Both the position numbers and the translations under genes were made by a program. DNA of 32,000 nt from Melioribacteraceae bacterium (GTDB taxonomy: Bacteria; Bacteroidota; Ignavibacteria; Ignavibacteriales; Melioribacteraceae): the NCBI GenBank assembly GCA_963667875.2, contig CAXXGC010000008.1:188191-220190 (forward strand), read 5' to 3'. Below, in pieces: positions 1,645 to 19,851 of the stretch. Under the pieces are notes generated by a model. The model ran no database searches and was not told the origin of the DNA. It saw only the letters and a list, made by a program, of their open reading frames with translations. Position 1 is the first letter of the stretch. Every line of letters starts with the position of its first letter.

Positions 1645-1684
1645 AAGTTTATTATTTTACATTATTTGTTAATAATTTTACAAA

Positions 1685-2947
1685 TTAACAGTTATCAATA
1701 ATTTTGGCAAGATTTAAGGCAATACTTTTTCTATCATGAATAAATATTTCATTATTATTTGGTATAAACGAATCTGCTATTTCAAAAAAATCTTCCGCAT
1801 AACTGTCAAACGAATAATATTTTCCCAAATTTGCTTTAGTAATCAGTTCGTTTACTTCATTATTTTTTTCGCCAAAAATAATAATAGGTTTTTGTGCCCG
1901 CATATATTCAAATAATTTTCCCGGCACATGACGTTCTTCGTGTGTACAAGCCAATAAATAATCAGCCGAACATATTTCCTTTATTACATCACTGTACGAT
2001 AAAAAACCCAAAAATATACAATGGTTTTCTAAACCGTTATTTATAATATCCTTTTTAATATTTGGGGCAATTGACCCTATAAATTTAAGTTTAAGATTAA
2101 CACCGCTGTCTATTCGTTTTTTTATCGTTTTCCAAAAGTTAACAGGATTTTGATATTCGTACATATTACCGGCGTGCAGCAATATTTTTTCGTCCTTTGT
2201 TTTTTTATCAGTTTCCTGTAAAAATTCAAAATCCTCTTCGTTGTAACCCCAATAAAGCTGGTTTGCTTTTGATTTTACAAAATTATATTTATCAATAAAA
2301 TATTGCCGCATACTTTTTGTAACAAAAATTGCCTGTTTTGCCTGTTTTAATGTTTTCTTTTCTAAATAATTATCTAATAAAACAGCAAAATAATTACGTT
2401 TTTGGTTTTTGTACGATGCGATGTCAACCCACGGGTCTATTAAAATGGGTATTAATGGAATATTAAACATTTTGCTTAATTTAACACCTATTAAATGCAC
2501 ACTATGCGGAGGGCCGTTTGTAATTATTACATCAACTTTATTTTTTTTAATAAATTCCGCTCCGGCTTTTACTCCGTATTTGTACCAGCCAATACGCGCA
2601 TCTGGAATAAACAAGTTCATTCGTATCCATAACGATATCTTATGCTTTAAACCTCCTTCGGTAGTTGACATAACTTCCGAGGCAAATAAGGCGGTATCTT
2701 TTCCTTTGCCTAAAAATTTTTTATAAAAAACAAACGGATCAAAAAAATCTGTTTTTATAACCTGTAAACCATCAGGAATACATTTGTTAAATGTATCATC
2801 TTTTGCCGAAAAGGAATCTTCTTTTACCGTTAAAACTGTTGATTTATATCCCTTTAAATCAAGATATTGTATCATTTTAAGAGGAAAATGTAAGGATGCT
2901 TTTCCCGATGGAGGCCAATAAAAAGAGATAAATAGTATTTTTTTCAT
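1685..2947 (-). CDS. GT-B fold glycosyltransferase (family 4-like)
   Basis: 420-aa ORF. The N-terminus (MKKILFISFYWPPSG) and the C-terminal HVPGKLFEYMRAQKPII region resemble the acceptor and donor halves of GT4-type glycosyltransferases. Specificity is unknown. Confidence 0.7.
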   Translation of the reverse strand: MKKILFISFYWPPSGKASLHFPLKMIQYLDLKGYKSTVLTVKEDSFSAKDDTFNKCIPDGLQVIKTDFFDPFVFYKKFLGKGKDTALFASEVMSTTEGGLKHKISLWIRMNLFIPDARIGWYKYGVKAGAEFIKKNKVDVIITNGPPHSVHLIGVKLSKMFNIPLIPILIDPWVDIASYKNQKRNYFAVLLDNYLEKKTLKQAKQAIFVTKSMRQYFIDKYNFVKSKANQLYWGYNEEDFEFLQETDKKTKDEKILLHAGNMYEYQNPVNFWKTIKKRIDSGVNLKLKFIGSIAPNIKKDIINNGLENHCIFLGFLSYSDVIKEICSADYLLACTHEERHVPGKLFEYMRAQKPIIIFGEKNNEVNELITKANLGKYYSFDSYAEDFFEIADSFIPNNNEIFIHDRKSIALNLAKIIDNC

Positions 2948-3153
2948 TTTCTAAATATTTATTAATTACATCACAATTTAATAGTTTTTAAAATAATTAC
3001 CCAAAATTTAATAATAATATTTTAATAAACTTTATTTGGAACTGTTTTCCATAAAATATGTACTAATTATAAAAGATATAAAGATGTGCTTTGCATCACA
3101 TTTTATATTAAATAAATTACTTAAGTTGCATTAAAATTATAGGGGAGCTATGA

Positions 3154-3417
3154 ATGAATGAAGTACTAAAAACAGTTGATGTTAAGCCTAAATTTGATAA
3201 TAAATTCAAATTTAAGTTATTTGTGTTAGAACCAATTATCGCATCAATTATAGGTTTTTTATTATTTGTAACTGTTATTTTTCTGGTAAAACTTTTAAGT
3301 TATGGTTTGGGGTTTCAAAGCACCATTTATTTTGATAATTACGATTTATGTCTTTCCAGTCTGGGATTAGTTTTAGCTTTTTTTATTCGTTTGATTGATA
3401 ATTTTAAAAAAGTTTAA
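3154..3417 (+). CDS. Hypothetical small membrane protein
   Basis: 87-aa ORF with two hydrophobic helices and a GGGGAG motif a few nt upstream of the ATG. No recognisable family. Its 3' end overlaps the prfA 3' end by 4 nt. Confidence 0.3.
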   Translation: MNEVLKTVDVKPKFDNKFKFKLFVLEPIIASIIGFLLFVTVIFLVKLLSYGLGFQSTIYFDNYDLCLSSLGLVLAFFIRLIDNFKKV

Positions 3418-4502
3418 TTACTGAAATCATCTACTTCTGCATTAAGTTTTTCTGTTTTATCTGCTATTTTTAACTTTTCAACTAATTCGAAAAGTTCACC
3501 TTGAATTATGTTGGATAAATTGTACAACGTTAACCCAATTCTGTGGTCTGTTACACGGTTTTGCGGGAAATTATAAGTACGTATTTTATCACTTCTATCA
3601 CCGCTTTTAACCATTGTACGTCTTTGAGCACTTATGGTATCGGTTTGTTCTTGCTGTTTTAAATCGAACAAACGGGCTTTAAGTACTTTTAAAGCTTTTT
3701 GACGGTTTTTCAGCTGTGACCTTTCATCCTGGCATTGAACAACCAAACCGGTTGGAAGGTGTGTAATTCTAATTGCTGTTTCAACTTTATTTACGTTCTG
3801 TCCGCCTGCGCCGCCGCTTCGGTAAACGTCAATACGCAAATCACCCGGATCAATATCAACCTGTACATCTTCTACTTCAAGTAATATTGCAACAGAGGCT
3901 GCGGAAGTATGAACCCGTCCGTTTGCTTCGGTTGACGGAACACGCTGCACACGATGAACACCGCTTTCATATTTCATATCGGCATATACACCGGTACCGG
4001 AAAGGTTAAACACAACTTCTTTTAATCCGCCCATTCCCGATTCGCTTACATCTATAACTTCCTGTTTCCAGCCTTTAAGTTCGGCAAAACGACTGTACAT
4101 ACGGTATAAATCACCGGCAAAAATTCCGGCTTCATCACCGCCTGTTCCGGCGCGTATTTCTACAATTGCGTTTTTATCATCGTTGGGGTCTTTTGGAATT
4201 AAAAGAAGTTTAATTTCTTCTTCCATTTCTTTTTCCCTGACCTTTAATTCCTTTAATTCCTCATCTGCCATTGCAGTAAGTTCAGCATCTTCATTACTTT
4301 TTATAATGTCTTCATTATCTTGTATTTGTATAATCAATTTTTCATAAATATCCAAAGCGTTTACAACATCCACAAGTTCGGAACGTTGTTTGCTTAATTT
4401 TACATACTTAACCTGATCTTTTATTATATCTGAGTCGCTTAACTGTTCGTTTATCTTGGAGTACTTGTCTTTTATTTCACGTAATTTTTCTAAAATGTCC
4501 AT
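3414..4502 (-). CDS. prfA: Peptide chain release factor 1
   Basis: 362 aa. It has the universal GGQ motif (SGGAGGQNVNKVETAIRITHLPTG) and the RF1-type PxT tripeptide (RVPSTE) rather than the RF2 SPF. Length and N-terminal helical domain are typical. Confidence 0.95.
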   Translation of the reverse strand: MDILEKLREIKDKYSKINEQLSDSDIIKDQVKYVKLSKQRSELVDVVNALDIYEKLIIQIQDNEDIIKSNEDAELTAMADEELKELKVREKEMEEEIKLLLIPKDPNDDKNAIVEIRAGTGGDEAGIFAGDLYRMYSRFAELKGWKQEVIDVSESGMGGLKEVVFNLSGTGVYADMKYESGVHRVQRVPSTEANGRVHTSAASVAILLEVEDVQVDIDPGDLRIDVYRSGGAGGQNVNKVETAIRITHLPTGLVVQCQDERSQLKNRQKALKVLKARLFDLKQQEQTDTISAQRRTMVKSGDRSDKIRTYNFPQNRVTDHRIGLTLYNLSNIIQGELFELVEKLKIADKTEKLNAEVDDFSN

Positions 4503-4975
4503 TAACCGTTTCCGCTATTTTTTTAATGTGCAAATATACGGAATTTTTATATTTTTTGTAATACTAAAATATGGCGCAACAAATCGGCTTCTGTTTTATC
4601 TGCCGCAAAACAATTTTATGTATGTATACCGGATTAATTTATTTAACAAAACTGTCACAAATTTTTTATTTAATACACCCCGTTTAAATATAATCTTTGT
4701 TATTTATTAAAATTACTTTATTTTAAAATGGGGTTAAACTTATAATTTAGTTTTGCCTTTATTGTACTTTAAATATTTTGGGAATCTATTTAATAGTATT
4801 GAGGATATATGTGTGTTGCGGCAAGGCGGGAGAATAAAAAAAATTTTAACTATTTTAACCTTACACAATTTGTTTGGCAAAATCCAAACATCTATTTACT
4901 TTATATTTTTGCCTTTTCGCCTTTTTTTACAACCCTGACCTTTTATAAAAAACCAATTAATAATGGAGTTTTTTA

Positions 4976-5395
4976 ATGCCCTACGATATATTTATTAGTT
5001 ATGCGCGTGCAGATAATAAGAACGGCAGAGTTACCGAATTAAAAGAACAAATTGAAGCCGAATACCAAGCTTTGACCGGTGAAAAGTTAAATTGTTTTTT
5101 TGATACCGAAGATATAAAGGGTATGGATTATTGGGAACATAATATATTAAAAGCTCTTAAAGATTCTCATTTATTTTTGGTATTACTTACACCAAATTAT
5201 TTTAAAAGCGATTATTGTAATTTGGAGATAAACGATTATTTACGCCATGAATACTCTAAGGGTGTTTTGGGTGATGGCATAACACCGATATGTTTTGTTG
5301 AAATACCTGATTTAGACAAACCTGATTTTTTAGAAAACAACCCCAATTGGTTAAAAAAAATTAATAAACGCCAAAGGTTTGATTTGTCACTTTGG
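4976..5395 (+). other. TIR domain of paralog 1 (putative catalytic Glu84 at 5225-5227)
   Basis: The DIFISYARAD beta-A motif and the SDYCNLE motif, with the Glu in the position of the NADase catalytic glutamate of characterised TIR enzymes. Domain boundaries are approximate. Confidence 0.75.
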
Positions 5396-7885
5396 TTTAA
5401 AGATGGTGTTAGTTCTTTACAGGATAATAACATTAAAACAAGTTTAAATGAATTAGTTAAATCTATTTTTTTACGAATTACCCGAATGAAAAACACTAAA
5501 ATTACCGATGGTAATTTACGTCCGCCTACTGCAAATTTTGTAGGCCGTAATGACGAACTGCATAATATACATAATTCAATAGACGCCGGTAAATTTGGGA
5601 TTATTACGGCAGTGCATGGTGTTGGCGGGTTAGGTAAAACTGAAACAGCCATTAAATACGCTTATGCTTATGCCGATTATTTTAGCGGCGGCAGATGGCA
5701 GATAAACTGTACCAACGAAACAGATATAAACACAGCATTAAAAAAGCTTGAATTGGACCTTAAGTTATCTTTTACCGAAGAAGAAAAAAAGGATGAACTG
5801 CAAGGAGCTAAAAGGATATTAAACGGATTAGAGGAACGGGCAAATAAAGGTATAAATAATAATAACGGGAAAAAACCGGCTGCCCTTTTAATACTTGATG
5901 ACGTTAATTTTCCGGAACTAATACAGTCGCCCGGAATAGAATTATTTACAGGTAAAGAATGGTTAAAGGTTTTAGCCACAACCCGCAAAGGTGAAAAAGA
6001 ATTTGGATTACCTGAACATAAACATAATTTTATACCAATTGATATTTTACCTGATGATGATGCCCTTGAGTTAATAGAAAGTTATTTGCCAACTAAAAAA
6101 TTTAGAAACAAAGAAGAAAAAGAAACCGCTAAAAAAATTGTAAAAGCATTGGCTGGTTTTACACTTGCCGTTGAAATTGCGGCTGTTTTTTTAGGTGAAA
6201 ACTACAGATTAAATTCTTTTAATGAATTTTATGATAAGTTAATACAAAACGGGACTGCAATTGGTATTGACCTTGCGGGAGAACAGACAACTACCACAAC
6301 AAACCATATTAAACGTGTTTCCGCCACTTTAGCTTTAACTTTGGATACACTTACAAAAGAGGAAATATTAATACTTAATTATGCTTCATTGCTTCCGTAT
6401 AATTTAATACCTGTCCCGTGGTTAAAAGAACTTGTAACAAAAAAATACCCCGAATTAAAAAACCAAACAAAAACCGAGTTTTTAGATCCTTGGCTAATAA
6501 AAATTAACCGGTTAATAAGTTTACGTTTATTGCAAGTGGTTGAATTAGAGGACGATACCCCGCGTATTGTACGTATGCACCAGTTAATACAGGGAGTGAT
6601 ACAAAACCGATGTAATAATACAGAAGATTTATTAAACGATTTATTTAATCATGGCCTTGTTCGTTCCGAATACCTTGAAACCAATTGGTACAAAAAAAGC
6701 GAACAATGGGAGATAAACCCGCTTGTAAATTTTACGGAATTGCTTTTGGATAAATCGTATATAGATGCACCCCAATTAGTACTTTCTTATGGTCCATGGT
6801 TGGATAATATTTATTCAAATTATGCATATAAAACAATTCTTTTAAAAGCAATTAAACTATTACAAAATAAAGATAGTTATAAACAAACCGACCTTGCAAC
6901 TTTATTCTCCAACCTTGCAATAATCGAAAGCTATTTGGGGAATCTTAAAGAAGCTAAAGAGTATTTGCTTAAAGCTGTTAAAATAAAAGAACAGAATTAT
7001 GAGCCTAACCATCATTCATTTGCAATAAGTTATTCCAACCTTGCAATAATCGAAAGATATTTGGGGAATCTTAAAGAAGCTAAAGAGTATTTGCTTAAAG
7101 CTATTAAAATTGATGAATCTAATTTTGAGCCTAACCATCCAAATCTGGCTATTCTTTATTCCAACTTTGCTACTGTTGAATGGGCTTTGGGGCATTTAAT
7201 TGGTGCTAAAGAGTATTTGCTTAAAGCTATTAAAATATATAAATCAAATTATGATCCTAACCATCCACAATTGGCTGTTCTTTATTCCAACATTGCAATG
7301 GTTGAAATGGATTTAGGGAACTTAAAAGATGCTAAAAATTATTTGTTTAAAGCTGTTAAAATTGATGAACTTAATTTTGAGCCTAACCATCCAAAGCTGG
7401 CATGTGATTATTCCAACCTGGCACTTGTTGAACGGGCTTTGTGGAATTTAACCGATGCAAAAAATTATTTACTTAACGCTGTTAAAATAGATGAACTTAA
7501 TTTTGAACCTAACCATCCAAATCTGGCAAGTGATTATTCCAACCTGGCACTTGTTGAACAGAATTTGGGGAATTTAATAGATGCTAAAAATTATTTGCTT
7601 AAAGCTGTTAAAATAGATGAACTTAATTTTGAACCTAACCATCCTAATTTGGCTACTCTGTATTCCAACCTTGCACTTGTTGAAAAGGATTTAGGGAATA
7701 TAAAAGAGGCCGAAAAATTATTCCGAGAAGCACTAAAGATAAGAGAAATATCACTCCCCAAGGGGCATCCAGAAACCAAATACAGTTACTTGTTTCTTAT
7801 ATATTTATTAAACCAAACAGGTAGGGAAAAAGAAGCAGACGAATTACGGTTAAAAGCGAAAGAACATGGATTTGACAATTTATAA
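4976..7885 (+). CDS. TIR domain / NB-ARC-type STAND NTPase / TPR-repeat protein (Avs- or TIR-NLR-like), paralog 1
   Basis: 969-aa ORF with GGAG 8 nt upstream of the ATG. The N-terminus MPYDIFISYARADN...SDYCNLE is a bacterial TIR signature. The NB-ARC motif set is present: FVGR, P-loop GVGGLGKT, Walker B LLILDDV, KVLATTR, GFTLAVEIAA (the GLPLA position) and RMHQL (the MHD position). The C-terminus carries 7-8 tandem 42-aa TPR units. Confidence 0.9.
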   Translation: MPYDIFISYARADNKNGRVTELKEQIEAEYQALTGEKLNCFFDTEDIKGMDYWEHNILKALKDSHLFLVLLTPNYFKSDYCNLEINDYLRHEYSKGVLGDGITPICFVEIPDLDKPDFLENNPNWLKKINKRQRFDLSLWFKDGVSSLQDNNIKTSLNELVKSIFLRITRMKNTKITDGNLRPPTANFVGRNDELHNIHNSIDAGKFGIITAVHGVGGLGKTETAIKYAYAYADYFSGGRWQINCTNETDINTALKKLELDLKLSFTEEEKKDELQGAKRILNGLEERANKGINNNNGKKPAALLILDDVNFPELIQSPGIELFTGKEWLKVLATTRKGEKEFGLPEHKHNFIPIDILPDDDALELIESYLPTKKFRNKEEKETAKKIVKALAGFTLAVEIAAVFLGENYRLNSFNEFYDKLIQNGTAIGIDLAGEQTTTTTNHIKRVSATLALTLDTLTKEEILILNYASLLPYNLIPVPWLKELVTKKYPELKNQTKTEFLDPWLIKINRLISLRLLQVVELEDDTPRIVRMHQLIQGVIQNRCNNTEDLLNDLFNHGLVRSEYLETNWYKKSEQWEINPLVNFTELLLDKSYIDAPQLVLSYGPWLDNIYSNYAYKTILLKAIKLLQNKDSYKQTDLATLFSNLAIIESYLGNLKEAKEYLLKAVKIKEQNYEPNHHSFAISYSNLAIIERYLGNLKEAKEYLLKAIKIDESNFEPNHPNLAILYSNFATVEWALGHLIGAKEYLLKAIKIYKSNYDPNHPQLAVLYSNIAMVEMDLGNLKDAKNYLFKAVKIDELNFEPNHPKLACDYSNLALVERALWNLTDAKNYLLNAVKIDELNFEPNHPNLASDYSNLALVEQNLGNLIDAKNYLLKAVKIDELNFEPNHPNLATLYSNLALVEKDLGNIKEAEKLFREALKIREISLPKGHPETKYSYLFLIYLLNQTGREKEADELRLKAKEHGFDNL
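5537..6600 (+). other. NB-ARC-like STAND NTPase module of paralog 1
   Basis: Walker A GVGGLGKT at 5618-5641, Walker B Asp-Asp at 5897-5902, a TTR motif, GFTLAV, and MHQ at 6575-6583. Boundaries are approximate. Confidence 0.75.
6881..7762 (+). repeat. Coding tandem array, 7 full units of 126 bp (42-aa TPR units), then a degenerate eighth unit
   Basis: The consensus unit is NHPxLAxxYSNLAxVExxLGNLxxAKxYLLKAxKIDExNFEP. Units 1 and 2 share 75 of 77 nt (6908-6984 versus 7034-7110). Confidence 0.9.
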
Positions 7886-7923
7886 ATTTGTTTTAGAAAC
7901 AAAAGAATATTAAAGGGAAATTT

Positions 7924-8343
7924 ATGCCATACGATATATTTATAAGTTATGCACGTGCAGACAATGCCGATGGTAGAGTTACCGAACTAAAAAAACAAAT
8001 TGAAACCGATTATTTTGCTTTTGCAAAAGAAGAGTTAAAATGTTTTTTTGATACTAAAGATATAAAATGCATGGATGATTGGGAACATAATATATTAAAA
8101 GCTCTTAAACAATCTCATTTGTTATTGGTTATTCTTTCACCCGGTTATTTAAAAAGTGAATATTGCAATTGGGAAATAACTGAATACTTAAAATATGAAT
8201 ATTCCCGTGCCGTACAAGGTGATGGTGTTGCCCAAATATATTTTGTTGAAATACCGGACTTAGATAAACCCGGATTTTTTGAAAAAAAAGTTGAATGGAT
8301 TAATAAAGTAAAATTCCGCCAAAGGATTGATTTAAGACCATGG
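7924..8343 (+). other. TIR domain of paralog 2 (putative catalytic Glu84 at 8173-8175)
   Basis: DIFISYARAD and SEYCNWE motifs. By eye, well over half of the residues are identical to the paralog 1 TIR. Boundaries are approximate. Confidence 0.75.
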
Positions 8344-11235
8344 TATGATGATGGAATAAATTCTCTTAAACAACATGATGTAAAAAAACGTTTGGACGAA
8401 TTAAAAGAAGCACTTCACAAAAGAATAAAAAGAATGAGGCGGATAAACGATGCGCCCGGTAATTTACCCGCACCAAACGCCCGTTTTGTAGGCCGTGAAA
8501 ACGAAATACAAAAACTTCACTCATCTGTTGGTTTGTGTAAGTTTGGTATAATAACCGCAGTACATGGTTTGGGCGGAATGGGTAAAACCGCTTTAGCTTT
8601 TCAGTATGCTTATGCTTATGCCGATTTTTACCCCGGCGGAAGGTGGTATATAAACTGCACTAACGAAACCGGTTTAGCTGCCGCATTAAAAAAACTGGAT
8701 TTAGATCTTAATATAGAATTTACGGAAGATGAAAAAAAAGACGATATCAGGGGTGCAAAACGTATATTAGACAAGCTGGGAAAACTTGCAACTGAAGGTT
8801 CAAAAAAACGTGAAGGAGAAAAAGACCCGCCCCAATCCGCAGCACTTATATTGCTTGACAATGTAGACAATCCCGAAATTATTAAACCCGAAGAAACAAA
8901 TATCATTTCAGGAAAAGACTGGTTAAAAGTTTTAATTACCACCAGAAAAGGAATCGAAGATTTTGGTTCGGATGAAACAAAACAATCTTTTATTCCGGTT
9001 GACAAACTCCCTTTTGATGATGCACTTAGTTTAATAAAAAGTTACCAGCCTTATGGAATATTTAAAGATAAAAACGAAATAGAAAGTGCCGGTAAAATTG
9101 TAATTTTGCTTGACGGTTTTACATTAGCCGTTGAAATAGCTGCTGTATATTTACACGATCAAAATGGCTATATTTCTTGTGCCGATTATCTTAATATGCT
9201 TCAAAGAGATGGTTTAGTTGCAAGTGTTGAATATGCAGGCGATAAATCCAAAACCGCAATAAACCATACAAAACTTATTACGGCAACATTAAAACCAACT
9301 TTAGAACTTCTTTCAAACGAAGAAAAATTAATATTAAATTATGCATCCTTATTACCTCCCGAATCTATTCCAGTTGTATGGTTAAAAGCTCTGGTTACCG
9401 CACAATATCCTGAACTTGGAGAAGATGTTTTACCCGGAATTATTGACCCTTGGTTAATAAAAATAAACCACCTTTTTAGTTTACGTTTATTGCAGATAGT
9501 TGACTTAGGCACTGATGGACTTACTCCGCAAATAGTGCGTATTCATCGTCTTGTTCAGGAGGTTATTTTAGTAGATTTGGAGGGGAAAGACACTTTTACT
9601 GCTAACTTATTTGAACATTGTTTAAGTCGTTCCGCATATCTTGAAACCAACTGGTATAATAAAAGCGACCAATGGGAAATAAACCCGCTTGTAAATTTTA
9701 CGGAACTACTTTTGGATAAATCGAATGTCGATGCACCCCAATTAGTTATTTATCTTGGGCAATGTTTGCATGGACTTCATTTTAATAATAGGCACAAAAA
9801 AATTCTTTTACATGCTGTAAAACTATTACAAAACAAAGATAATTATAAACAAACCGACCTTGCAGTTTTATATTCTAATCTTGCGGCTGTCGAAAAGGCT
9901 TTGGGGAACTTTAAAAACGCTAAAGATTATTTGCTTAAAGCTGTTAATATTGATGAGCTTAATTTTGCGCCTGACCATCCCGCGCTGGCTACTTTATATT
10001 CCAACCTTGCAATGATTGAAAAGGATTTGGGGAATCTAAAAGATGCTAAAGATTATTTACTAAAGGCTATTAATATTGCTGAGCTTAATTTTGCGCCTAA
10101 CCATCCCACGCTGGCTACTTTATATTCCAACCTTGCACTTGTTGAAAGGCCTTTGGGGAATCTAAAAGATGCCAAAGATTATTTGCTAAAAGCAATAAAA
10201 ATCGGTGATGTAAGTTATGAGCCTAACCATCCTACTCTATCAACTTATTATTCCAACCTTGCAATGGTTGAAAGGGATTTGGGGAATTTGATAGATACTA
10301 AGGAGTATTCCCTTAAAGCAATAAAAATCGGGGAAGTAAATTATGAGCCTAACCATCCTCAATTGGCTATTTATAATTCCAACCTTGCATTAGTTGAACA
10401 GGATTTAGGGAATCTAAAAGAAGCTAAAGATTTTTTGCTTAAAGCAGTTACAATTGATGAACTTAATTATGAACCTAACCATCCAAATCTGGCAAGAGAT
10501 TATTCCAACCTTGCTACTGTTGAACAGGCTTTGGGGAACTTAAAAGATGCTAAAGACTATTTGCTTAAATCAATAAAAATCGGCGAGGTAAGTTATGAAC
10601 CCAACCATCCTCAATTGGCTATTTATTATTCCAACCTAGCAATGGTTGAACAGGATTTGGGGAATTTGATAGATGCTAAAGATTATTTGTTTAAAGCTGT
10701 TAAAATTGATGAACTAAATTTTGAGCTTAACCATCCTAATCTGGCCATAGATTATTCCAACCTTGCAACTGTTGAACAGGAGCTAGGGAACTTAACTTGT
10801 GCTAAAGATTATTTGCTTAAAGCGGTTAAAATTGATGAACTTAATTTTGCGCCTAACCATCCCACGCTGGCTTCTTTATATTCCAACCTAGCAATGGTTG
10901 AACAGGATTTGGGGAACTTAATGGAGGCACTGGTATTAATAAAAAATGCTGTTAGAATTGATGAATTTAATTTTGGAGAAAACCATATTAATTTAACCAC
11001 ATCACTTAATAACCTTGCAATGTTGCTGCAAAATAATAATCAATTAGATGAAGCTGAAAAAATAAGCCAAAAAGTGGTAAATATTTTTCTTAATTATGCA
11101 CGTACTACCGGACAAATACACCCACATTTAAAACGGGCAACAAATAATTATGTAATTTTGCTGCAAAAAATGGGCTGGAGTGAAGAGCAAATAATGGCAC
11201 AATTACATAAAATAGCACCGGAATTGTTTAAATAA
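7924..11235 (+). CDS. TIR domain / NB-ARC-type STAND NTPase / TPR-repeat protein, paralog 2
   Basis: 1103-aa ORF that starts 38 nt after paralog 1, with AGGGA upstream of the ATG. It has the same N-terminus (MPYDIFISYARADN...SEYCNWE), P-loop GLGGMGKT, Walker B LILLDNV, VLITTR, GFTLAVEIAA and RIHRL. About 10 tandem 42-aa TPR units follow, then a divergent C-terminal TPR-like cap. Confidence 0.9.
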   Translation: MPYDIFISYARADNADGRVTELKKQIETDYFAFAKEELKCFFDTKDIKCMDDWEHNILKALKQSHLLLVILSPGYLKSEYCNWEITEYLKYEYSRAVQGDGVAQIYFVEIPDLDKPGFFEKKVEWINKVKFRQRIDLRPWYDDGINSLKQHDVKKRLDELKEALHKRIKRMRRINDAPGNLPAPNARFVGRENEIQKLHSSVGLCKFGIITAVHGLGGMGKTALAFQYAYAYADFYPGGRWYINCTNETGLAAALKKLDLDLNIEFTEDEKKDDIRGAKRILDKLGKLATEGSKKREGEKDPPQSAALILLDNVDNPEIIKPEETNIISGKDWLKVLITTRKGIEDFGSDETKQSFIPVDKLPFDDALSLIKSYQPYGIFKDKNEIESAGKIVILLDGFTLAVEIAAVYLHDQNGYISCADYLNMLQRDGLVASVEYAGDKSKTAINHTKLITATLKPTLELLSNEEKLILNYASLLPPESIPVVWLKALVTAQYPELGEDVLPGIIDPWLIKINHLFSLRLLQIVDLGTDGLTPQIVRIHRLVQEVILVDLEGKDTFTANLFEHCLSRSAYLETNWYNKSDQWEINPLVNFTELLLDKSNVDAPQLVIYLGQCLHGLHFNNRHKKILLHAVKLLQNKDNYKQTDLAVLYSNLAAVEKALGNFKNAKDYLLKAVNIDELNFAPDHPALATLYSNLAMIEKDLGNLKDAKDYLLKAINIAELNFAPNHPTLATLYSNLALVERPLGNLKDAKDYLLKAIKIGDVSYEPNHPTLSTYYSNLAMVERDLGNLIDTKEYSLKAIKIGEVNYEPNHPQLAIYNSNLALVEQDLGNLKEAKDFLLKAVTIDELNYEPNHPNLARDYSNLATVEQALGNLKDAKDYLLKSIKIGEVSYEPNHPQLAIYYSNLAMVEQDLGNLIDAKDYLFKAVKIDELNFELNHPNLAIDYSNLATVEQELGNLTCAKDYLLKAVKIDELNFAPNHPTLASLYSNLAMVEQDLGNLMEALVLIKNAVRIDEFNFGENHINLTTSLNNLAMLLQNNNQLDEAEKISQKVVNIFLNYARTTGQIHPHLKRATNNYVILLQKMGWSEEQIMAQLHKIAPELFK
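8485..9565 (+). other. NB-ARC-like STAND NTPase module of paralog 2
   Basis: Walker A GLGGMGKT at 8566-8589, Walker B Asp at 8857-8859, TTR, GFTLAV, and an IHR (MHD-like) motif with its His at 9544-9546. Boundaries are approximate. Confidence 0.75.
9847..11106 (+). repeat. Coding tandem array, about 10 units of 126 bp (42-aa TPR units)
   Basis: The units follow the same consensus as paralog 1 (NHPxLAxxYSNLAxVExxLGNLxDAKDYLLKAxKIxExN[FY]xP). The last unit is degenerate. Confidence 0.9.
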
Positions 11236-11294
11236 CTTTACAATAAATACATTATTTTATAAAGGTTAATAAATGGATTTTTTTTGGAGAAAAG

Positions 11295-12200
11295 ATGAAA
11301 ACAATTTTAGTTACAGGGGATTTTATAATTTGCCATAACATTAAAAAAACCAAATCATTAAATTGGTCAGGTAATAACAGGGCGGACACCGTTATAAACA
11401 CACAACCCGGCGGAGGCTGGTTTATTAAAGAACTGTTAAACCTTATGTATAAAAAAGAGAATATTAATATTATAACTCCCCAATATACCGATTCTGCTGA
11501 TAAAGGTTATCAAATTTGGTCCAAGTTTAATAACATATGGCGGATTGAAGGTTTTTTAGGTAATGAACTAAATGAAAACAACGAACAAATTTATTCTGGT
11601 TTTTACCCTGAGCTGACAAAAAACGAATATCCCGATACGATATTTATAGACGACTTAGGCCTAAATTTTGCCGAAAACGAAAAGATTATTGTTTCCTTAT
11701 TAGATTACCTAAATAGCTGTACAGATATTATATTAAAAACAAAAACCCACAAATATAATTCCAGGTTATGGAACACTTTAAAACAGTATAATTTATTGGA
11801 TAAAACTACTGTGGTTACAACTTCCGATTCGTTAAGAAAAGGCGGGGCTAATATTTCGCGTAGTTTATCGTGGGATAAAACCATAGAGGATACAGCCGAA
11901 GAATTAAAAAACGGATATTTTAATGACGTTTTTAAAAATTGCAAAAGGATTATTATATTATACGATAAATTTGGTATAGGTTGTTTTACAACAAAATCGC
12001 AGACTAATAGATTTTCAGGAACGGATATTCACGAAGGCAAATTATCGTTTGAAAAATTTGTATATGACACAAAAAATTATGAGGGAGCTTGGGAAAATAA
12101 AAACGAGGGATTTTTATGCGGTTCGCTTTCATTGTTGGCTACAGCTTCAACATTAATTAACAACCAACAAAAACTTTCAATAAGTTATATTTTTAAAATG
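11295..12200 (+). other. Ribokinase (PfkB)-like domain, probably catalytically degenerate
   Basis: By-eye alignment of the GD..h..(gap)..PGG(G/A) N-terminal motifs, the TIFIDDLG and TTVVTTSDSLRKGG strands, and KRIIILYDKFGIGCF, to the PfkB fold. This is a remote call and needs HHpred or structure prediction. Confidence 0.4.
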
Positions 12201-13919
12201 GTATTAAGTTCAATACATAAATATCACGAGTATGGCGGCGGAACCGGTTTACAAATAGATTTTTCAGAAAGCAAAAAATTTATAAAAGAGCTGTTTAATT
12301 TTCATCAATTATCACCCGTAGAAGCTGAACTTAATAACAAGGAGATATTAAAAAATTTGAAACAGTTTTATTCCGCATACCCAAAATATTATAAACTTGC
12401 CGAATACGGGTTAAAGGAAATCCGTTCACGTTTTCAATCAAATATTTTAGTCGATTATTGCGGAAAAGGCGAGGAATTTTTATATGCAAAAGCTTTCGAA
12501 ATTATAATAACAGGTCATAAAAACGCGCTAAAACCGGTACCAATGGCAAGTTACGGTAAATATTTTACATTTGACCGCGATGAAATTGAAAGAATAAATT
12601 TTATACAAAACCTGATAAACACATATCAAGTTAATTTAACGGATAAACGCCCTTTATCTTTTGCGGTTTTTGGCGCGCCCGGTTCAGGTAAATCGTTTGC
12701 AATTAAAGAACTATTAAATACTATTTTTAGAACTGCAAAAGATCTGCTTGTTTTTAATCTTACTCAAATTCATGATATAAACGATTTATATCAAGCTTTT
12801 AATCTTGTACAAAACAGTGCGGTCAAAGGGGTTTTACCTTTGGTTTTTTGGGATGAGTTTGATAATATGGACAATATGTGGTTAAAAGACTTTTTAGCAC
12901 CAATGCAGGACGGAGAATATAATAATAACGGTATAAACCATACAATTGGAAGAGCAATATTTGTTTTTGCCGGCGGAACGTGTAATTCGTTTGAGGAATA
13001 CGAAAGTAAAGTGCATAAGACAGAAGGAATAAAAGGCCCCGATTTTATCAGCCGCTTGCGTGGTTATGTTAATATTAAAGGGCCAAACCCGGAAATACAG
13101 CCAAACAATATCAAAAGTTCCGACTATGCTTATTTAATCAGGCGGGCATTGTTAATTCGTTTTCATCTTGAAACACACCATCGGGGTATTTTTGACGCTG
13201 ATTTTATTCCGTCTATTAACCCCGGTGTAATTAACGCACTTCTTAAAACCAAAGAATATAAACATGGTTCCCGATCGGTTGAGTCGATAATCAGTTCAAG
13301 TTACACGGAAAGTAATAACCATTTTGGTTTTTCATCACTTCCTTCACCACAGTTATTAAATATTCACGCAGATGGCGATTTTATGACTTTAATTGACGAA
13401 GGAGAATTGGAGAACGATTTTATTGAATTAATTGCTGCATCCGCACATCAATATTGGATGGAGGAAAAGAAAAACCAAGGGTATAAATTCGGCCCCACAA
13501 GAAATGATAAAGGAGAAAATAAAACTCATCCCCAATTAATTCCCTATAATAAGTTAGATGAGGAATGGAAAGAACGGAACAGAAAAACCGCCCGTTTAAC
13601 AAAAGCAAAATTTGCAAAAATAGGATATTCGTTAATTCCAAAATTTAAACAGGAAGCTAACGATTTGGATATAACCTCAATTATTGAAAAAAACAAAACA
13701 AATTTGTTAAATATAGAACACGAAATTTGGCTTCGCGGACAACTTATAGAAGGTTACGAGTACAACGAAATTACTAATGACGACCTTTTACTTCACAAAG
13801 ATATTACAACAACTGGTAAATTGTTAAATTCCGCGGAAATAAAACTTGATGAAGCAATAATAGAAGCTACCCAAAAAGCGTTGGTGGAATCGGGATATAA
13901 ATTGCGTTTAATTAAATAA
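11295..13919 (+). CDS. Multidomain protein: ribokinase/PfkB-like N-terminal domain (degenerate) + classical AAA+ ATPase + tandem RyR (ryanodine-receptor repeat) domains
   Basis: 874-aa ORF starting 59 nt after paralog 2, with GGAGA upstream of the ATG. The N-terminus ILVTGDFIICHNI...(about 25 aa)...QPGGGWFIKELLNL parallels the ILVVGDxMLDRY...PGGAANVA layout of PfkB/HldE-type kinases. The GAGD anion-hole motif is replaced (NEGFLCGSLSLLA). The AAA core has FAVFGAPGSGKSFAIKELL (Walker A), LVFWDEFD (Walker B), IFVFAGGT and GPDFISRLRG. The C-terminus AASAHQYWMEEKKNQGYKFGPTRNDKGENKTHPQLIPYNKLDEEWKERNRKTAR matches the RyR repeat (PF02026-type) pattern. Confidence 0.8.
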   Translation: MKTILVTGDFIICHNIKKTKSLNWSGNNRADTVINTQPGGGWFIKELLNLMYKKENINIITPQYTDSADKGYQIWSKFNNIWRIEGFLGNELNENNEQIYSGFYPELTKNEYPDTIFIDDLGLNFAENEKIIVSLLDYLNSCTDIILKTKTHKYNSRLWNTLKQYNLLDKTTVVTTSDSLRKGGANISRSLSWDKTIEDTAEELKNGYFNDVFKNCKRIIILYDKFGIGCFTTKSQTNRFSGTDIHEGKLSFEKFVYDTKNYEGAWENKNEGFLCGSLSLLATASTLINNQQKLSISYIFKMVLSSIHKYHEYGGGTGLQIDFSESKKFIKELFNFHQLSPVEAELNNKEILKNLKQFYSAYPKYYKLAEYGLKEIRSRFQSNILVDYCGKGEEFLYAKAFEIIITGHKNALKPVPMASYGKYFTFDRDEIERINFIQNLINTYQVNLTDKRPLSFAVFGAPGSGKSFAIKELLNTIFRTAKDLLVFNLTQIHDINDLYQAFNLVQNSAVKGVLPLVFWDEFDNMDNMWLKDFLAPMQDGEYNNNGINHTIGRAIFVFAGGTCNSFEEYESKVHKTEGIKGPDFISRLRGYVNIKGPNPEIQPNNIKSSDYAYLIRRALLIRFHLETHHRGIFDADFIPSINPGVINALLKTKEYKHGSRSVESIISSSYTESNNHFGFSSLPSPQLLNIHADGDFMTLIDEGELENDFIELIAASAHQYWMEEKKNQGYKFGPTRNDKGENKTHPQLIPYNKLDEEWKERNRKTARLTKAKFAKIGYSLIPKFKQEANDLDITSIIEKNKTNLLNIEHEIWLRGQLIEGYEYNEITNDDLLLHKDITTTGKLLNSAEIKLDEAIIEATQKALVESGYKLRLIK
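12627..13155 (+). other. AAA+ ATPase module
   Basis: Walker A GAPGSGKS at 12672-12695 and Walker B DE at 12852-12857. A sensor-1-like GGT and an Arg-rich ISRLRG segment lie downstream. Confidence 0.75.
13419..13916 (+). other. Two RyR-type repeats (first canonical at 13419-13640, second degenerate at 13701-13916)
   Basis: Repeat 1 is FIELIAASAHQYWMEEKKNQGYKFGPTRNDKGENKTHPQLIPYNKLDEEWKERNRKTARLTKAKFAKIGYSL. Repeat 2 is NIEHEIWLRGQLIEGYEYNE...LLLHKDITTTGKLLNSAEIKLDEAIIEATQKALVESGYKL. Both follow the pattern A..H..W......G[WY].[FY]G.......HP.L.P...L....K..[DN]R. Confidence 0.65.
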
Positions 13920-14068
13920 AATAAACGGTTGTTGCAAACTGCAAAAGGCTAATAAAATGTAACACTTTCAGCGTTATTACGCAATATATTGATTTTCGCT
14001 AAATAAATTTCAATTTGGATTAGTGAATTATATAAAAGAGGTTATCTTAAAAGTCTAAATGTAATACA

Positions 14069-14245
14069 GGGTACTCACCCGTCTCAAAATCAGCCGGGCG
14101 TGGCCCCTGACTCTCCCGCTGTGCGGGACAAGCTCTATTCTTAAAAATAGTGGGGTGACTGTAAAAGCATATAAAACAATGATTTGTAAGGATTTGTGTC
14201 TCCTCTCTTTTTAAGAGAGGAGATTAAGAGGTGAGTTCGTTTTTT
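14069..14245 (+). other. GC-rich, hairpin-dense non-coding element (candidate small RNA, REP-like element or insertion scar)
   Basis: It sits in a 378-nt convergent spacer. A GC-rich core (CACCCGTCTC..AGCCGGGCGTGGCCCCTGACTCTCCCGCTGTGCGGGACAAGCTC) stands out from the AT-rich background. Hairpins are CCCGC-TGT-GCGGG (14115-14127) and TCTCCTCTC-N7-GAGAGGAGA (14199-14223). A possible long-range helix pairs ACTCACC (14073-14079) with GGTGAGT (14230-14236), followed by a T6 run. Strand and function are unknown. Confidence 0.25.
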
Positions 14246-14297
14246 AATTTTTACACAGACTGTTAAGCCTGCTCTTTTTTTCTAAACACAAAACCAT

Positions 14298-15434
14298 TTA
14301 TTTCTTTTTAATAATTACTTTACCCATATTTGAAGTAAGTTCAACCCTGACGGAGCCATTGCCTATTACTGCGTCGGCGTTAATTTCTTCCCAATCATCA
14401 TTATCAATATTTAATTTAAAATCACTTTTTATATAATCGTCCATATCTTCCGAACCGTTTCCTTTAACTTGAACTTTTATTTTCATCCCTAAATTTTCCG
14501 GAACAGTTAAATAAATATTGCCTGCCATTGTTGAAATATTAATTTCACCGTTTTCAGGACAGCCATTTAAGTTAACCGTAATATTGCCGCCCATAGTTTT
14601 TGCTTCAATTTCGCCATCCATTTCATCAACTTTAATATCACCGCCCATAGTTGTAACTTTCAGATCATCTTTTGCCGAATTAATTTCAATATTGCCCCCC
14701 ATGGTTGTAATTATTGATTCGGTTAAAACTTTATCAACTTTAATATCACCGCCCATAGTTTTTATTGTAATTTCATCAAGGCTCGATTTATTTTCTTTAA
14801 GTGTAACATTTTTTTGATGTATTTCGCCACCCATAGTTTCAACACTTAAATTTCCGGTAACATCTTCCATTCTAATTTCACCGCCCATGGTTTTTACTTT
14901 TCCGTCAAGCGTACATTTATATAAAGTTATTTCACCACCCATGGTTTGGCAATTTGCACTACCATTTAAATCCGAAAAATTTAATTCGCCCCCCATAGTT
15001 TTGCCTCTTAAATCGCCGGTAATATTCTTTAAAGTAACATCACCCCCCATTGTTATATATTCAACACTGTATTTAACGGGTACTTTAACAAACACTTTTG
15101 CATCATATTTTGCGTTTTTATGTTTGTTTGTTAACTTAGCATTTATTTCAACACCTTCGGATGTTTCGTTAATATCATAAGTAACTCTGTCGGCATTTTT
15201 ACCGGTGGTTTGGCAAACAACATTAACTACTTCTTTATCCCAGCCTGTAACTTCAATTTCAGCACCAATTTCCAAATTAATATTAACTTTTAAACCCGAT
15301 TTTGTGTTAAAACTTTTATCAATTTTTTCAGGTGTAACATTGTTGTCTTTGTAAAAAACATTATTAATACCGCTTAATGGATAAGCACCCATAAACAGAA
15401 CCATAACAATTGCAATTTTAATATAATTTTTCAT
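14298..15434 (-). CDS. DUF4097-like secreted beta-helical repeat protein (TMGG[DE]I repeats)
   Basis: 378 aa with an N-terminal signal-like hydrophobic segment. About ten 18-aa repeats are each anchored by TMGG[DEN]I, as seen in DUF4097 / LiaF-C-terminal-type domains. It is the last gene of the ECF sigma operon. Confidence 0.7.
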   Translation of the reverse strand: MKNYIKIAIVMVLFMGAYPLSGINNVFYKDNNVTPEKIDKSFNTKSGLKVNINLEIGAEIEVTGWDKEVVNVVCQTTGKNADRVTYDINETSEGVEINAKLTNKHKNAKYDAKVFVKVPVKYSVEYITMGGDVTLKNITGDLRGKTMGGELNFSDLNGSANCQTMGGEITLYKCTLDGKVKTMGGEIRMEDVTGNLSVETMGGEIHQKNVTLKENKSSLDEITIKTMGGDIKVDKVLTESIITTMGGNIEINSAKDDLKVTTMGGDIKVDEMDGEIEAKTMGGNITVNLNGCPENGEINISTMAGNIYLTVPENLGMKIKVQVKGNGSEDMDDYIKSDFKLNIDNDDWEEINADAVIGNGSVRVELTSNMGKVIIKKK

Positions 15435-15449
15435 TTTATCCCCGTTAGT

Positions 15450-16589
15450 TTATTTTTTATTCTTTTTTACTGATATTTTTGAATTTGTTGTTTCCAAATA
15501 TATTTTATCGCCGCCGCCGTTAATGGAATAACTTGCGGTTATGTTGCCGCTTTTATTGCTTTTTTTCAAAGAAGTCGGTTCAAAATCCGAATCAATTTGC
15601 GGTTCATCCTCATCATACCAACCCCAATCTCTTATTTTTGCATCAACGTAAGCTTTTGCATTTGACGGCAGATATAAATTAATATCACCCGAACTCGATT
15701 TTATTACCGAATTCCAGCCGCCGGTAGGGGTTAGTTCAACATTAACTTCACCGGCCATTGTATTTGCGTCTATACTTCCAACAATACCATACAGTTTAAG
15801 ATCACCGGCACCGCTTTCAACAGTTATTTTGCCTTTTGCGCCATTTAAAGTAATATCACCGCCCATAGTTTTTAACTTGCCGTTTCCGTTCATAAAACCT
15901 GTATTAATATCACCGCCATTTGTTGTCAACTCGGAATCATCTCCAATGTCACCAACTTTAATATCACCGCCATAAGTATGAAGATTAAGGCCTTTAATCG
16001 ATTTTTTTATTCTGATATCGCCGCCCATGGTTTCAATTCTAACAATTTCACCGGAAAGTGTGCCCAAATATATTTCGCCGCCCATGGTTTTAAGGTCAAG
16101 TTTCCCTGTAACATCCATACCTCTAATATCACCGCCGGCCGAAAAAGCATTCAAATCGCCTTTAATGTTTGCAAAATGTACTTCGCCGCCTGATGTTTTT
16201 AGATAAACATTTCCGGTTATTTCATCTCTTAATTTAATATCACCAAAATTAGCTTTAATACTTAAATTTATTTGTTTTGGAACAGTTACACGCAAATCAT
16301 AAGAGGCCCAGCCATCTTCATAATTAGGTGTTACGTACAACCAACTTCCGCTTTGTTTATATTTTAAAGGATTCCCATATTCTTCATCTTCACTTTCAAT
16401 TCTTATTAATACTTCGTCTTTATTCCAAGTATCAACCGTAATATTCCCCTGTATTAAATCAAATTCTACTTTTCCCCCTTTTTGCATTTGAAAAGACTTT
16501 GTAGATCCGTTATTTGTTATATTTTCTGCTTTAGCAGTATTTATAATTAACAGCAATAAAAGTAAATTTATATATTTAAAGTATCTCAT
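15450..16589 (-). CDS. DUF4097-like secreted beta-helical repeat protein, paralog
   Basis: 379 aa with a signal-like N-terminus (MRYFKYINLLLLLLIINTAKA) and repeated [ST]xGG[DE]I units (TSGGEV, SAGGDI, TMGGEI, TMGGDI, TYGGDI, TNGGDI ...). There is a 15-nt gap to the downstream paralog. Confidence 0.7.
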   Translation of the reverse strand: MRYFKYINLLLLLLIINTAKAENITNNGSTKSFQMQKGGKVEFDLIQGNITVDTWNKDEVLIRIESEDEEYGNPLKYKQSGSWLYVTPNYEDGWASYDLRVTVPKQINLSIKANFGDIKLRDEITGNVYLKTSGGEVHFANIKGDLNAFSAGGDIRGMDVTGKLDLKTMGGEIYLGTLSGEIVRIETMGGDIRIKKSIKGLNLHTYGGDIKVGDIGDDSELTTNGGDINTGFMNGNGKLKTMGGDITLNGAKGKITVESGAGDLKLYGIVGSIDANTMAGEVNVELTPTGGWNSVIKSSSGDINLYLPSNAKAYVDAKIRDWGWYDEDEPQIDSDFEPTSLKKSNKSGNITASYSINGGGDKIYLETTNSKISVKKNKK

Positions 16590-16590
16590 A

Positions 16591-17553: not shown

Positions 17554-17565
17554 TTTTGTTAAATC

Positions 17566-18138
17566 CTAATTTTGTAAAACAGGTTGTAAAATAGATCTTA
17601 AACGGTGTGTTGCGTTAAATAAGTACCTTTTTACCGTACCTTCATTACAGTTCATTATTTTTGCTATCTCTTTTATTTTATATTCATTATAATGCTTTAG
17701 TGTAAAAGCCAACTTTTGCTGAACGGGCAAAGTTTCCAAAGCATCATTAATTAGTTTGTTAGTTTCATTGTTAAGCAGATTTTCATCTGTTTTCTCCAAA
17801 GAAGGGATTGAGTCCGAAAATTTTTCATCGCTGTCTTCAAATTCCACATCAAGCGAATCGTGAACATGTCTCTTTTTTTGTGTGTTCAGCGTAATGCAAA
17901 CATTTGTTGCAATTCTAAACAGCCAAGTCGAAAATTCACTTTTGAATTGAAAGCTTTTTAACCCCTTATATACTCTGATAAACACTTCCTGGTATATATC
18001 TTTTGCTTCATCTTCATCATTCTTAAAAGAATACGCAATGTTTAATACCTGCCTATCATACTTATAAATAAGTTGTTCAAAGGCTTTCATATCACCTTCT
18101 TGGGCTTTTTTAATTAATTTAATTTCATTTTCAGTCAT
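17566..18138 (-). CDS. ECF-type RNA polymerase sigma-70 family factor
   Basis: 190 aa. Region 2 is DIYQEVFIRVYKGLKSF...FSTWLFRIATNVCI. The region 4 helix-turn-helix is YKIKEIAKIMNCNEGTVKRYLFNATHRLR. Confidence 0.9.
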   Translation of the reverse strand: MTENEIKLIKKAQEGDMKAFEQLIYKYDRQVLNIAYSFKNDEDEAKDIYQEVFIRVYKGLKSFQFKSEFSTWLFRIATNVCITLNTQKKRHVHDSLDVEFEDSDEKFSDSIPSLEKTDENLLNNETNKLINDALETLPVQQKLAFTLKHYNEYKIKEIAKIMNCNEGTVKRYLFNATHRLRSILQPVLQN

Positions 18139-18163
18139 ATGTCATCAAAATGTTTCTATTAAT

Positions 18164-19849: not shown

Positions 19850-19851
19850 AT

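Follow-up and report, generated by a model that had tools for sequence, protein, structure and literature searches.

A tandem-RyR ATPase conserved beside TIR genes: a candidate Thoeris-like cassette in a Melioribacteraceae bacterium

Does a bacterial protein with domains of the ryanodine receptor (RyR) type receive a signal made by the TIR proteins encoded next to it? The question is raised by a three-gene cassette in a 32,000-nucleotide (nt) stretch of DNA, referred to here as the window, from a Melioribacteraceae bacterium (assembly GCA_963667875.2, contig CAXXGC010000008.1, positions 188,191-220,190). All three genes lie on the + strand and start with ATG; genes 1 and 2 encode TIR-STAND-TPR proteins of 969 and 1103 amino acids (aa), and gene 3 encodes an 874-aa protein that combines a ribokinase (PfkB) fold, an AAA+ ATPase and two RyR repeats. 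We consider the chances about even that the cassette is Thoeris-like, with the TIR-STAND sensors making a signal derived from ADP-ribose (ADPR) and the RyR domain of gene 3 receiving it. The open reading frames with their coordinates, the gaps of 38 nt (genes 1 and 2) and 59 nt (genes 2 and 3) and the flanking spacers of 473 and 378 nt reproduce exactly those of a first-pass annotation of this DNA, and Pfam confirmed its placing of the cassette between prfA and an ECF sigma operon, both on the opposite strand. A sequence scan found no terminator-like or promoter-like sites in either gap, as expected from the earlier statement that no hairpin with a T-run separates the genes. A GGAG-type ribosome-binding site, ascribed to all three genes, was found 7 nt ahead of the gene-1 ATG and also before gene 3; gene 2 is preceded by AGGGA instead.

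We analysed the product of gene 3 (11295-13919) with Pfam, HMMER, structure prediction and Foldseek. Pfam recognised one RyR repeat (aa 708-780; 59.9 bits, cutoff 27.4) and weak P-loop matches, and NCBIfam (June 2026), PADLOC v2 and PHROGs offered no system or family name; the suspicion that this combination belongs to no named defence system thus held for the PADLOC v2 and NCBIfam models. An AlphaFold2 model (pLDDT 90.4, pTM 0.91; alignment of 56 homologues), compared with the PDB by Foldseek, bore out the ribokinase-like/AAA+/RyR composition read from the sequence at first pass. It consists of a ribokinase/PfkB fold (aa 1-411; 11295-12527), a classical AAA+ ATPase of the kind seen in ClpB, Lon and Skd3, with a helical lid (aa 428-690; 12576-13364), and a tandem RyR of the Repeat12 (R12) type, made up of repeat 1 (aa 696-782; 13380-13640) and repeat 2 (aa 793-872; 13671-13910). 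The C-terminus aligned over 179-200 columns to 6uhi (TM 0.71) and 9l9b, the latter being human RyR3 R12 with dantrolene and ADP, and the RyR sequence matched RyR repeats in the PDB at E values of 7e-19 to 1e-10. When aa 1-420 were modelled apart (pLDDT 91), the top 50 Foldseek matches in the PDB were all PfkB-family kinases (TM 0.44-0.60, E 5e-9 to 1e-6), so that the ribokinase fold is present. The fold of the central domain is likewise accompanied by the Walker A Lys (K466, within G460-S467) and the Walker B Asp-Glu (D520-E521), which were invariant in 57 + 80 homologues, and the AAA+ domain looks active from these residues. PF00004 is recorded on many gene-3 homologues; the window protein itself shows only the weak P-loop matches.

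The known ligands of RyR domains point to the products of TIR enzymes. The phage glycosidase RyDEP, an RyR-domain protein, opens 2'cADPR and 3'cADPR (cyclic forms of ADPR) with a catalytic dyad of H75 and D117, while W78 stacks on the adenine and H100 contacts the phosphates; six of eight tested RyDEP homologues bound the signals without cleaving them, and the two that were characterised do so at nanomolar affinity (PMC13232231). RyR Tad, also from phage, binds 3'cADPR with a Kd of 43 nM via H129/W132, K147/H154 and K170/D171 (bioRxiv 10.64898/2026.06.04.730250). The pocket residues are conserved across PF02026, animal R12 included (PMC13232231; bioRxiv 10.64898/2026.06.04.730250). We found that H809, W812, H834 and D852 of gene-3 repeat 2 have the RyDEP spacing (+3, +25, +42) after removal of a one-residue insertion specific to the window protein, that the repeat is aligned in register with Bacteroides and RyR1 repeats, and that H809 and W812 are invariant (57/57 homologues). 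Repeat 1 carries H718, W721 and H745, with a 2-residue insertion, and N762 in place of the Asp; the W721 position is always aromatic, and the Asp position is occupied by Asn in 52 of 57 homologues. We propose that the tandem forms one or two putative nucleotide pockets.

Gene 3 thus shares with RyDEP and RyR Tad the PF02026 family, the His/Trp/His/Asp set at the same spacing and a two-fold arrangement of two RyR units. It differs from them in being host-encoded, in having both repeats in one chain where the phage proteins are homodimers, in the ATPase and kinase-fold modules, some 700 aa in all, that are joined to RyR, and in the Asn at the catalytic-acid position of repeat 1. The resemblance to animal R12 lies in the use of tandem RyR repeats as a nucleotide or drug pocket (Foldseek TM 0.5-0.7 to gene 3), although gene 3 encodes a soluble bacterial ATPase and not a 5,000-aa Ca2+ channel.

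To which genes is gene 3 tied in other genomes? An exhaustive HMMER scan (E <= 1e-30, 50%-identity cluster representatives) yielded a family of 1,782 cluster representatives, none of them informatively named; full-length homologues of gene 3 occur in many phyla. Most members come from environmental phyla in which STAND, TPR and WD40 proteins abound, and the closest relatives come from Bacteroidales and Rikenellaceae metagenome-assembled genomes (MAGs). Neighbourhoods were taken for the 80 best of 334 relatives on GTDB contigs (one genome per species, flanks up to 10 kb) and annotated with our own gene calls and small custom jackhmmer profiles, for which the window and the first loci provided the seeds; in a Pfam spot check, 7/7 sampled TIR neighbours were TIR_2. 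A gene for TIR or for DUF4062, a TIR-like NADase that produces ADPR (Osinski et al. 2026, bioRxiv 10.64898/2026.05.01.722283), was present in the flanks of 43 loci by hidden Markov model and of at least one more (L085) by Pfam, making 44 of 80; it lay within 500 bp of the gene-3 homologue in 23 of the 80. Where each flank reached 5 kb or more (45 loci), such a gene was found in 27. We took the TIR-likeness of DUF4062 from that study, since our own hhalign comparison of TIR and DUF4062 alignments matched the first strand only. Within the first kb, where 36 of these genes start, their density was 2.37 per 10 kb; at 5-10 kb it was down to 0.12-0.28, a drop of about 10-20-fold in a comparison that has distance as its internal control and neither a whole-genome background nor a phylogenetic correction. 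They were on the same strand as gene 3 in 56 cases and on the opposite strand in 20.

At least two TIR genes stood beside a single gene-3 homologue in 20 loci, as they do in the window. Among the closest relatives (47-54% identity), TIR or DUF4062 genes were found in 5/5 distinct loci, the gene-3 homologue directly adjoining TIR_2 or DUF4062-STAND-TPR/WD40 genes; an 850-aa RelA_SpoT-RyR protein was usual there, and NUDIX, Macro and small RyR-only proteins were frequent. The locus of a homologue with 35% identity contained DUF4062-STAND genes, Macro, a small RyR-only protein and a TrkA_N-RyR protein. Overall, an additional RyR protein was present in 19/80 loci and a RelA-type gene in 7/80. By the first-pass annotation's own test, gene-3 homologues occurring mainly in unrelated neighbourhoods would have refuted its proposal, and the count of 44/80, the distance decay and the strand bias came out for linkage. 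Its narrower expectation, enrichment next to TIR or STAND genes, survived for a TIR or TIR-like NADase partner and not for STAND as such, and about 45% of the homologues are solitary. Indeed, the C-terminal modules of the TIR partners vary (TPR, WD40, PPC, STAND-TPR, NB-ARC-TPR-SLATT, DctP), and the conserved pairing is between the gene-3 family and the TIR-superfamily NAD+-cleaving domain. Since gene 3 is genomically linked to TIR genes, it probably works with them and not, like the phage RyR proteins, against them. In the GTDB set, which is independent of the alignment used above, D852 was present in 42/42 homologues from TIR/DUF4062-linked loci as against 19/32 from TIR-less ones (Fisher 3e-6, phylogeny uncorrected), an association that is no more than supportive of a coupling between gene 3 and the TIR genes.

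Genes 1 (4976-7885) and 2 (7924-11235), described at first pass as TIR-NB-ARC-TPR paralogs with a TIR Glu84, proved to be such by Pfam and by their 58% identity over 967 aa, NB-ARC region included. Both share the N-terminal motif MPYDIFISYARADN and the catalytic-type Glu84, which lies in CNLE in gene 1 (TIR, aa 1-140; 4976-5395) and in CNWE in gene 2 (TIR, aa 1-174; 7924-8445; Pfam TIR_2 and TIR). In gene 1 Pfam placed TIR_2 at aa 5-136, NB-ARC at aa 194-425 (46.5 bits; 5555-6250) and TPR_12/TPR_10 matches at aa ~621-961 (6836-7858). The STAND NTPase of gene 2 (aa 187-432; 8482-9219) matched AAA_16 and NB-ARC (18 bits), both below threshold, and is assigned by homology to the gene-1 NB-ARC; its TPR region (aa 635-1064; 9826-11115) scored 251 bits for TPR_12. 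Within the TPR regions we detected tandem arrays of a 126-bp (42-aa) unit, with 6.5 copies and 81% matches in gene 1 (6908-7722) and 8.4 copies and 77% matches in gene 2 (9867-10921); the difference in copy number accounts for much of the difference in length between the two genes, and the arrays are a likely substrate for repeat gain, loss and recombination.

The order of domains in genes 1 and 2, an N-terminal effector-type domain, a STAND NTPase and a C-terminal TPR-like sensor with variable repeats, is that of Avs and TIR-STAND proteins, as stated at first pass. Membership in a defined Avs family did not follow from their sequences, as a PADLOC-DB v2 scan gave no Avs model at E <= 0.01. 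PADLOC returned weak TIR matches (PDC-S66, ThsB); in PADLOC and NCBIfam those to ThsB and ThcB4 were far under the cutoffs, and the best NCBIfam match, FxSxx_TPR, was also under cutoff. Genes 1 and 2 further differ from Avs proteins, which are single-gene NAD+-depleting effectors, in being a tandem pair with a co-conserved third gene and in having TIR domains that are proposed to signal; the conserved neighbour argues against single-gene function. RyR is not mentioned in the Avs survey (Nature 2026).

We infer that the TIRs of genes 1 and 2 produce a signal, that gene 3 binds it and answers with an output, and that the purpose is defence. A trigger, presumably a phage protein, would be recognised by the variable TPR arrays of genes 1 and 2, upon which the NB-ARC STAND NTPase would oligomerise and cluster the N-terminal TIR domains with their Glu84. 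The clustered TIRs would convert NAD+ into a cADPR-type or other ADPR-derived nucleotide, which the tandem RyR of gene 3 would bind via its His/Trp/His/Asp(Asn) residues. Binding would switch on the AAA+ ATPase/PfkB-fold part, and the outcome would be growth arrest or abortive infection. The output might be that of a ligand-gated ATPase or unfoldase, consumption of ATP, or phosphorylation of a ribose-containing metabolite by the PfkB fold. Thoeris loci with several thsB genes provide a parallel for at least two TIR sensors feeding one effector.

The comparison with Thoeris (ThsB with the effectors ThsA/ThsC-ThsL, types I-XI; bioRxiv 10.64898/2025.12.03.692087) can be carried further. There, too, one or several TIR genes stand beside a single conserved partner, the TIR protein has variable sensor parts, and the effector joins its output modules to a domain that binds small molecules; loci related to the cassette also share with Thoeris the presence of SLATT and Macro genes. 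As for the features by which a Thoeris system is recognised, genes 1 and 2 supply a TIR protein with the catalytic Glu (TIR_2, Glu84), and gene 3 supplies a co-conserved neighbour with a candidate ligand domain, whose linkage and pocket residues are conserved and for which binding is demonstrated in the phage RyR proteins only. The PADLOC and NCBIfam models gave the weak, far sub-cutoff ThsB/ThcB4 TIR matches mentioned above and nothing for gene 3. The cassette departs from Thoeris in its putative receptor, RyR (PF02026), and in its architecture, since a PfkB fold with AAA+ and two RyR repeats is not among the described effectors, and RyR is absent from the 29 effector configurations in the text and supplements of Yirmiya et al. 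(bioRxiv 10.64898/2025.12.03.692087). It also differs in that its TIR is part of a protein with a STAND NTPase and a TPR array, a class which that survey deliberately excluded, and in being known from sequence alone.

A third comparison is with the NTP-dependent conflict systems (PMC7159879; PMC8195603), which resemble the cassette and its relatives in their multi-gene loci, in STAND, TPR/WD40, TIR and NUDIX/Macro components, in a small domain shared by neighbouring genes and in occurring mostly in environmental bacteria and those of multicellular habit. In those systems the shared domain is an adaptor (EAD/Death-like), whereas here it is a putative nucleotide pocket. The term 'RyR domain' is absent from both papers, and neither RyR, ryanodine, PfkB nor ribokinase is mentioned in PMC7159879. 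A search of open-access papers and preprints for a host RyR effector tied to TIR found only the two phage RyR papers; within the open-access literature, a host RyR-domain partner of TIR genes is thus undescribed. What is new in the cassette is the candidate receptor/effector family and the proposed STAND-type signal generators, TIR nucleotide signalling being already known.

Several results weigh against nucleotide signalling to gene 3. TIR-STANDs are usually seen as self-contained NAD+-depleting effectors, a view on which Yirmiya et al. (2025; bioRxiv 10.64898/2025.12.03.692087) based their exclusion from the signalling TIRs. PADLOC and NCBIfam recognise no system in the cassette. For the N-terminal domain of gene 3, Pfam gave no PfkB or kinase match and hhalign of the domain alignment against E. 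coli RbsK found nothing, and catalytic residues were therefore mapped by motif spacing alone. By that spacing, gene-3 G8..D13, G39-G40 and D257..E263 parallel RbsK G11..D16, G41-G42 and D249..D255, and the family as a whole has retained counterparts of the sugar-binding Asp and of the GG dipeptide, with a Glu where the catalytic base would be (E263, kept in 80/80 GTDB homologues). The window protein, however, has Cys13 where 50/57 homologues have the Asp that matches, by spacing, the ribose-binding Asp16 of ribokinase; given this residue, its PfkB-fold domain may have lost or altered substrate binding. The RyR pocket residues are compatible with hydrolysis or sequestration of a signal too. In 36/80 loci (~45%), mostly those of distant homologues, the 10-kb flanks lack any TIR or DUF4062 gene, and the Clostridia homologues are solitary among housekeeping genes (Mfd, ABC transporters, methyl-accepting chemotaxis proteins, sulfite reductase). 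Finally, the window has no other defence genes near the cassette, which sits among housekeeping genes.

The compatibility of the pocket with removal of a signal bears on the possibility that gene 3 is a regulator or off switch. Its RyR part would quench stray cADPR-type or ADPR products, its kinase fold and ATPase would recycle them or reset the system against autoimmunity, and the TIR-STANDs, conventionally taken as NADase effectors, would kill by NAD+ depletion. Repeat 2 does have full equivalents of the RyDEP dyad, H809 and D852, at the same spacing, and RyDEP acts along with NAD+ salvage enzymes (PMC13232231), to which the joining of a sugar/nucleoside-kinase fold to RyR in gene 3 may be compared. 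Yet the dyad is no proof of catalysis, as the sponge RyR Tad has a His/Asp pair without hydrolysing the signal, and the Asn of repeat 1 takes the acid away from the other half of the tandem in nearly all homologues. Small stand-alone RyR proteins of sponge-like look in several loci and the co-occurrence of ADPR-processing NUDIX and Macro genes would also suit a quenching role. A sensor would better account for the same RyR domain being fused, in these loci, to modules typical of toxins or outputs (RelA_SpoT, TrkA_N), and 874 aa with an invariant AAA+ domain would be a heavy investment for a buffer. We regard the off switch as unlikely, though it is the strongest of the alternatives.

The TIR-less loci speak for a reading in which there is no coupling at all. 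Genes 1 and 2 would then be self-contained Avs-like NADases, and gene 3 an independent single-gene system or a housekeeping ATPase, landing together by chance in variable 'conflict' regions. TIR-STAND proteins are commonly found alone, as the Clostridia homologues of gene 3 are. Against this, TIR genes in many phyla crowd close to gene-3 homologues and favour their strand, with a steep fall over distance, and D852 is fully conserved only where a TIR gene is adjacent. The 59-nt gap without a terminator-like site and the independent biochemical link of RyR domains to TIR products, established with the phage proteins, also speak against it. We find this alternative quite improbable.

The surroundings of the cassette raise the further possibility that TIR-to-RyR nucleotide signalling is real and serves a purpose other than anti-phage defence, such as stress, dormancy or conflict of the kin or multicellularity type, roles of the sort put forward for STAND-rich systems in environmental bacteria. 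Core genes flank the cassette on both sides, and neither a mobile element nor another defence gene was found near it. Related loci contain partners of the alarmone type (RelA_SpoT), and the family resides mainly in environmental phyla rich in STAND, TPR and WD40 proteins; conflict systems of this kind were described by Kaur et al. 2020 (PMC7159879). To date, however, all bacterial TIR signalling systems that have been characterised act against phages, phages encode RyR sponges and hydrolases against these very signals, and the rapid variation of the tandem TPR arrays is a trait typical of pathogen sensors. A role outside defence therefore appears highly improbable to us.

Returning to signalling through gene 3, a broader reading covers the whole family, and we hold it tentatively, at somewhat poorer than even chances. 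Host RyR domains would be the true receptors of ADPR messengers made by TIR and DUF4062 proteins, in an unrecognised Thoeris-like branch of about 1,800 clusters from many bacterial phyla and some archaea. STAND-type TIRs would be signal generators and not terminal NADases, the outputs would be PfkB-fold/AAA+, RelA/SpoT and TrkA_N modules, phages would have obtained their RyR sponges and hydrolases by capturing receptor domains from hosts, and animal R12 would derive from an immune nucleotide sensor. If so, RyR/R12 would be a new receptor class for TIR nucleotide signalling within a new effector architecture, and the origin of the phage RyR-domain anti-Thoeris proteins would be explained. NLR-like TIR-STANDs could then feed a downstream effector, beyond burning NAD+, which would bring them closer to plant TIR-NLRs. 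A tractable bacterial system would become available for a long-standing question, that of a direct action of cADPR-type nucleotides on RyR Repeat12. The idea is specific and the family widely distributed, and it joins phage anti-defence proteins, plant-like TIR-NLR signalling and animal RyR R12.

Other proteins with RyR domains were observed in the related loci. A protein of about 850 aa with RelA_SpoT and RyR, and a faint LSDAT/SLOG-like match, was encoded in seven loci from different organisms (L003 12790-15342, L006 7405-9963, L007 304-2862, L011 5376-7937, L019 7418-9952, L072 3448-6021 and L088 3120-5669) and not in the window; it looks like a second RyR-gated effector, possibly an alarmone synthetase or toxSAS-like enzyme. 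A small NUDIX gene lies alongside it in L003, L007, L072 and L088. The window also has a NUDIX gene (291-749), which we did not count in the cassette, since its identity to the NUDIX genes that accompany RelA-RyR is only 28% and three opposite-strand housekeeping genes lie between. A protein of about 600 aa with TrkA_N (Rossmann NAD-binding) and RyR adjoins gene-3 homologues and TIR genes in about ten loci (for example, L009 18706-20499, L022 7672-9504, L052 12771-14528 and L069 12582-14339), and stand-alone RyR proteins of 82-136 aa occur in the loci with TrkA_N-RyR (e.g. L026 9941-10228). The presence of one RyR domain on several output modules, with NUDIX, Macro and SLATT nearby, is what one would expect if the domain were a shared sensor of signals.

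Two TIR-less gene-3 homologues have SLATT/DUF4231 genes beside them. In a Gimesia MAG, a 1,604-aa TIR/NB-ARC/TPR protein with a C-terminal SLATT_1 two-transmembrane effector domain (L043 12949-17763) adjoins the gene-3 homologue, and would appear to combine sensor, signal generator and membrane effector in one chain beside the RyR protein. Solitary homologues, from more distant lineages, are found in L075-L084 and L089 (Clostridia/Firmicutes) and in the Chlorobiaceae loci L037, L039, L051, L058 and L060. Homologues from TIR-less loci, solitary ones included, more often lack D852, H834 and G40, which suggests that the solitary ones are a functionally diverged sub-clade or use signal sources elsewhere in the genome.

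We also looked at the remainder of the window. The gene for prfA (PCRF and RF-1 domains in Pfam) lies at 3414-4502 on the - strand, ahead of the cassette. Beyond gene 3, a tight four-gene operon (14298-18138, - strand; Pfam) is convergent with the cassette and encodes an ECF sigma factor, a zf-HC2/HEAT anti-sigma factor, a DUF4097 'toastrack' protein and a 378-aa protein without a Pfam match; no tie of this operon to the cassette was seen in related loci. The rest is housekeeping (glycogen synthase, HemN-like radical SAM, GDP-mannose dehydratase, S46 peptidase, Sua5, PFK). No integrase or transposase was found anywhere in the 32 kb, as had been noted at first pass, and the cassette is not distinct in GC content, which is ~0.30-0.35 across the window.

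A second public assembly of the locus (L001; ENA ERZ21878447 ctg35649l) is 99.9% identical to window positions 1299-20683, with 13 indels over 19.4 kb. Gene 1 was called there as 901 aa and gene 2 as two fragments of 395 and 318 aa. We did not take these broken genes as biology: they most probably reflect indel error in a long-read assembly, or else trivial frameshifts, a less likely alternative being that frameshifts have truly inactivated the genes of a sister strain.

Rfam and tRNA scans of the window, both long spacers included, gave no match. The downstream spacer (13920-14297, 378 nt) is common to the cassette and the convergent gene at 14298-15434, and a scan found no canonical + strand terminator in it. 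It contains a perfect hairpin with an 8-bp stem at 14200-14222, CTCCTCTC-TTTTTAA-GAGAGGAG, with no T-run beside it, and a GC-rich stretch (14085-14135) without an Rfam match that is unusual against sequence of 31% GC; these could be a terminator shared by the convergent genes or an unrecognised element. The upstream spacer (4503-4975, 473 nt) is AT-rich and presumably contains the promoter of the cassette. A scan for sigma-70-type promoters showed no enrichment, the count being under the shuffled expectation. The spacer has an inverted repeat with a 7-bp stem, TGTTTGGCAAAATCCAAACA, at 4871-4890, and a TAnnTTTG-like motif, TATTTTTG, ~65-70 nt upstream of the gene-1 start (about 4900-4912). This motif resembles the Bacteroidota -7 promoter element, which would fit the Bacteroidota affinity of the closest homologues.

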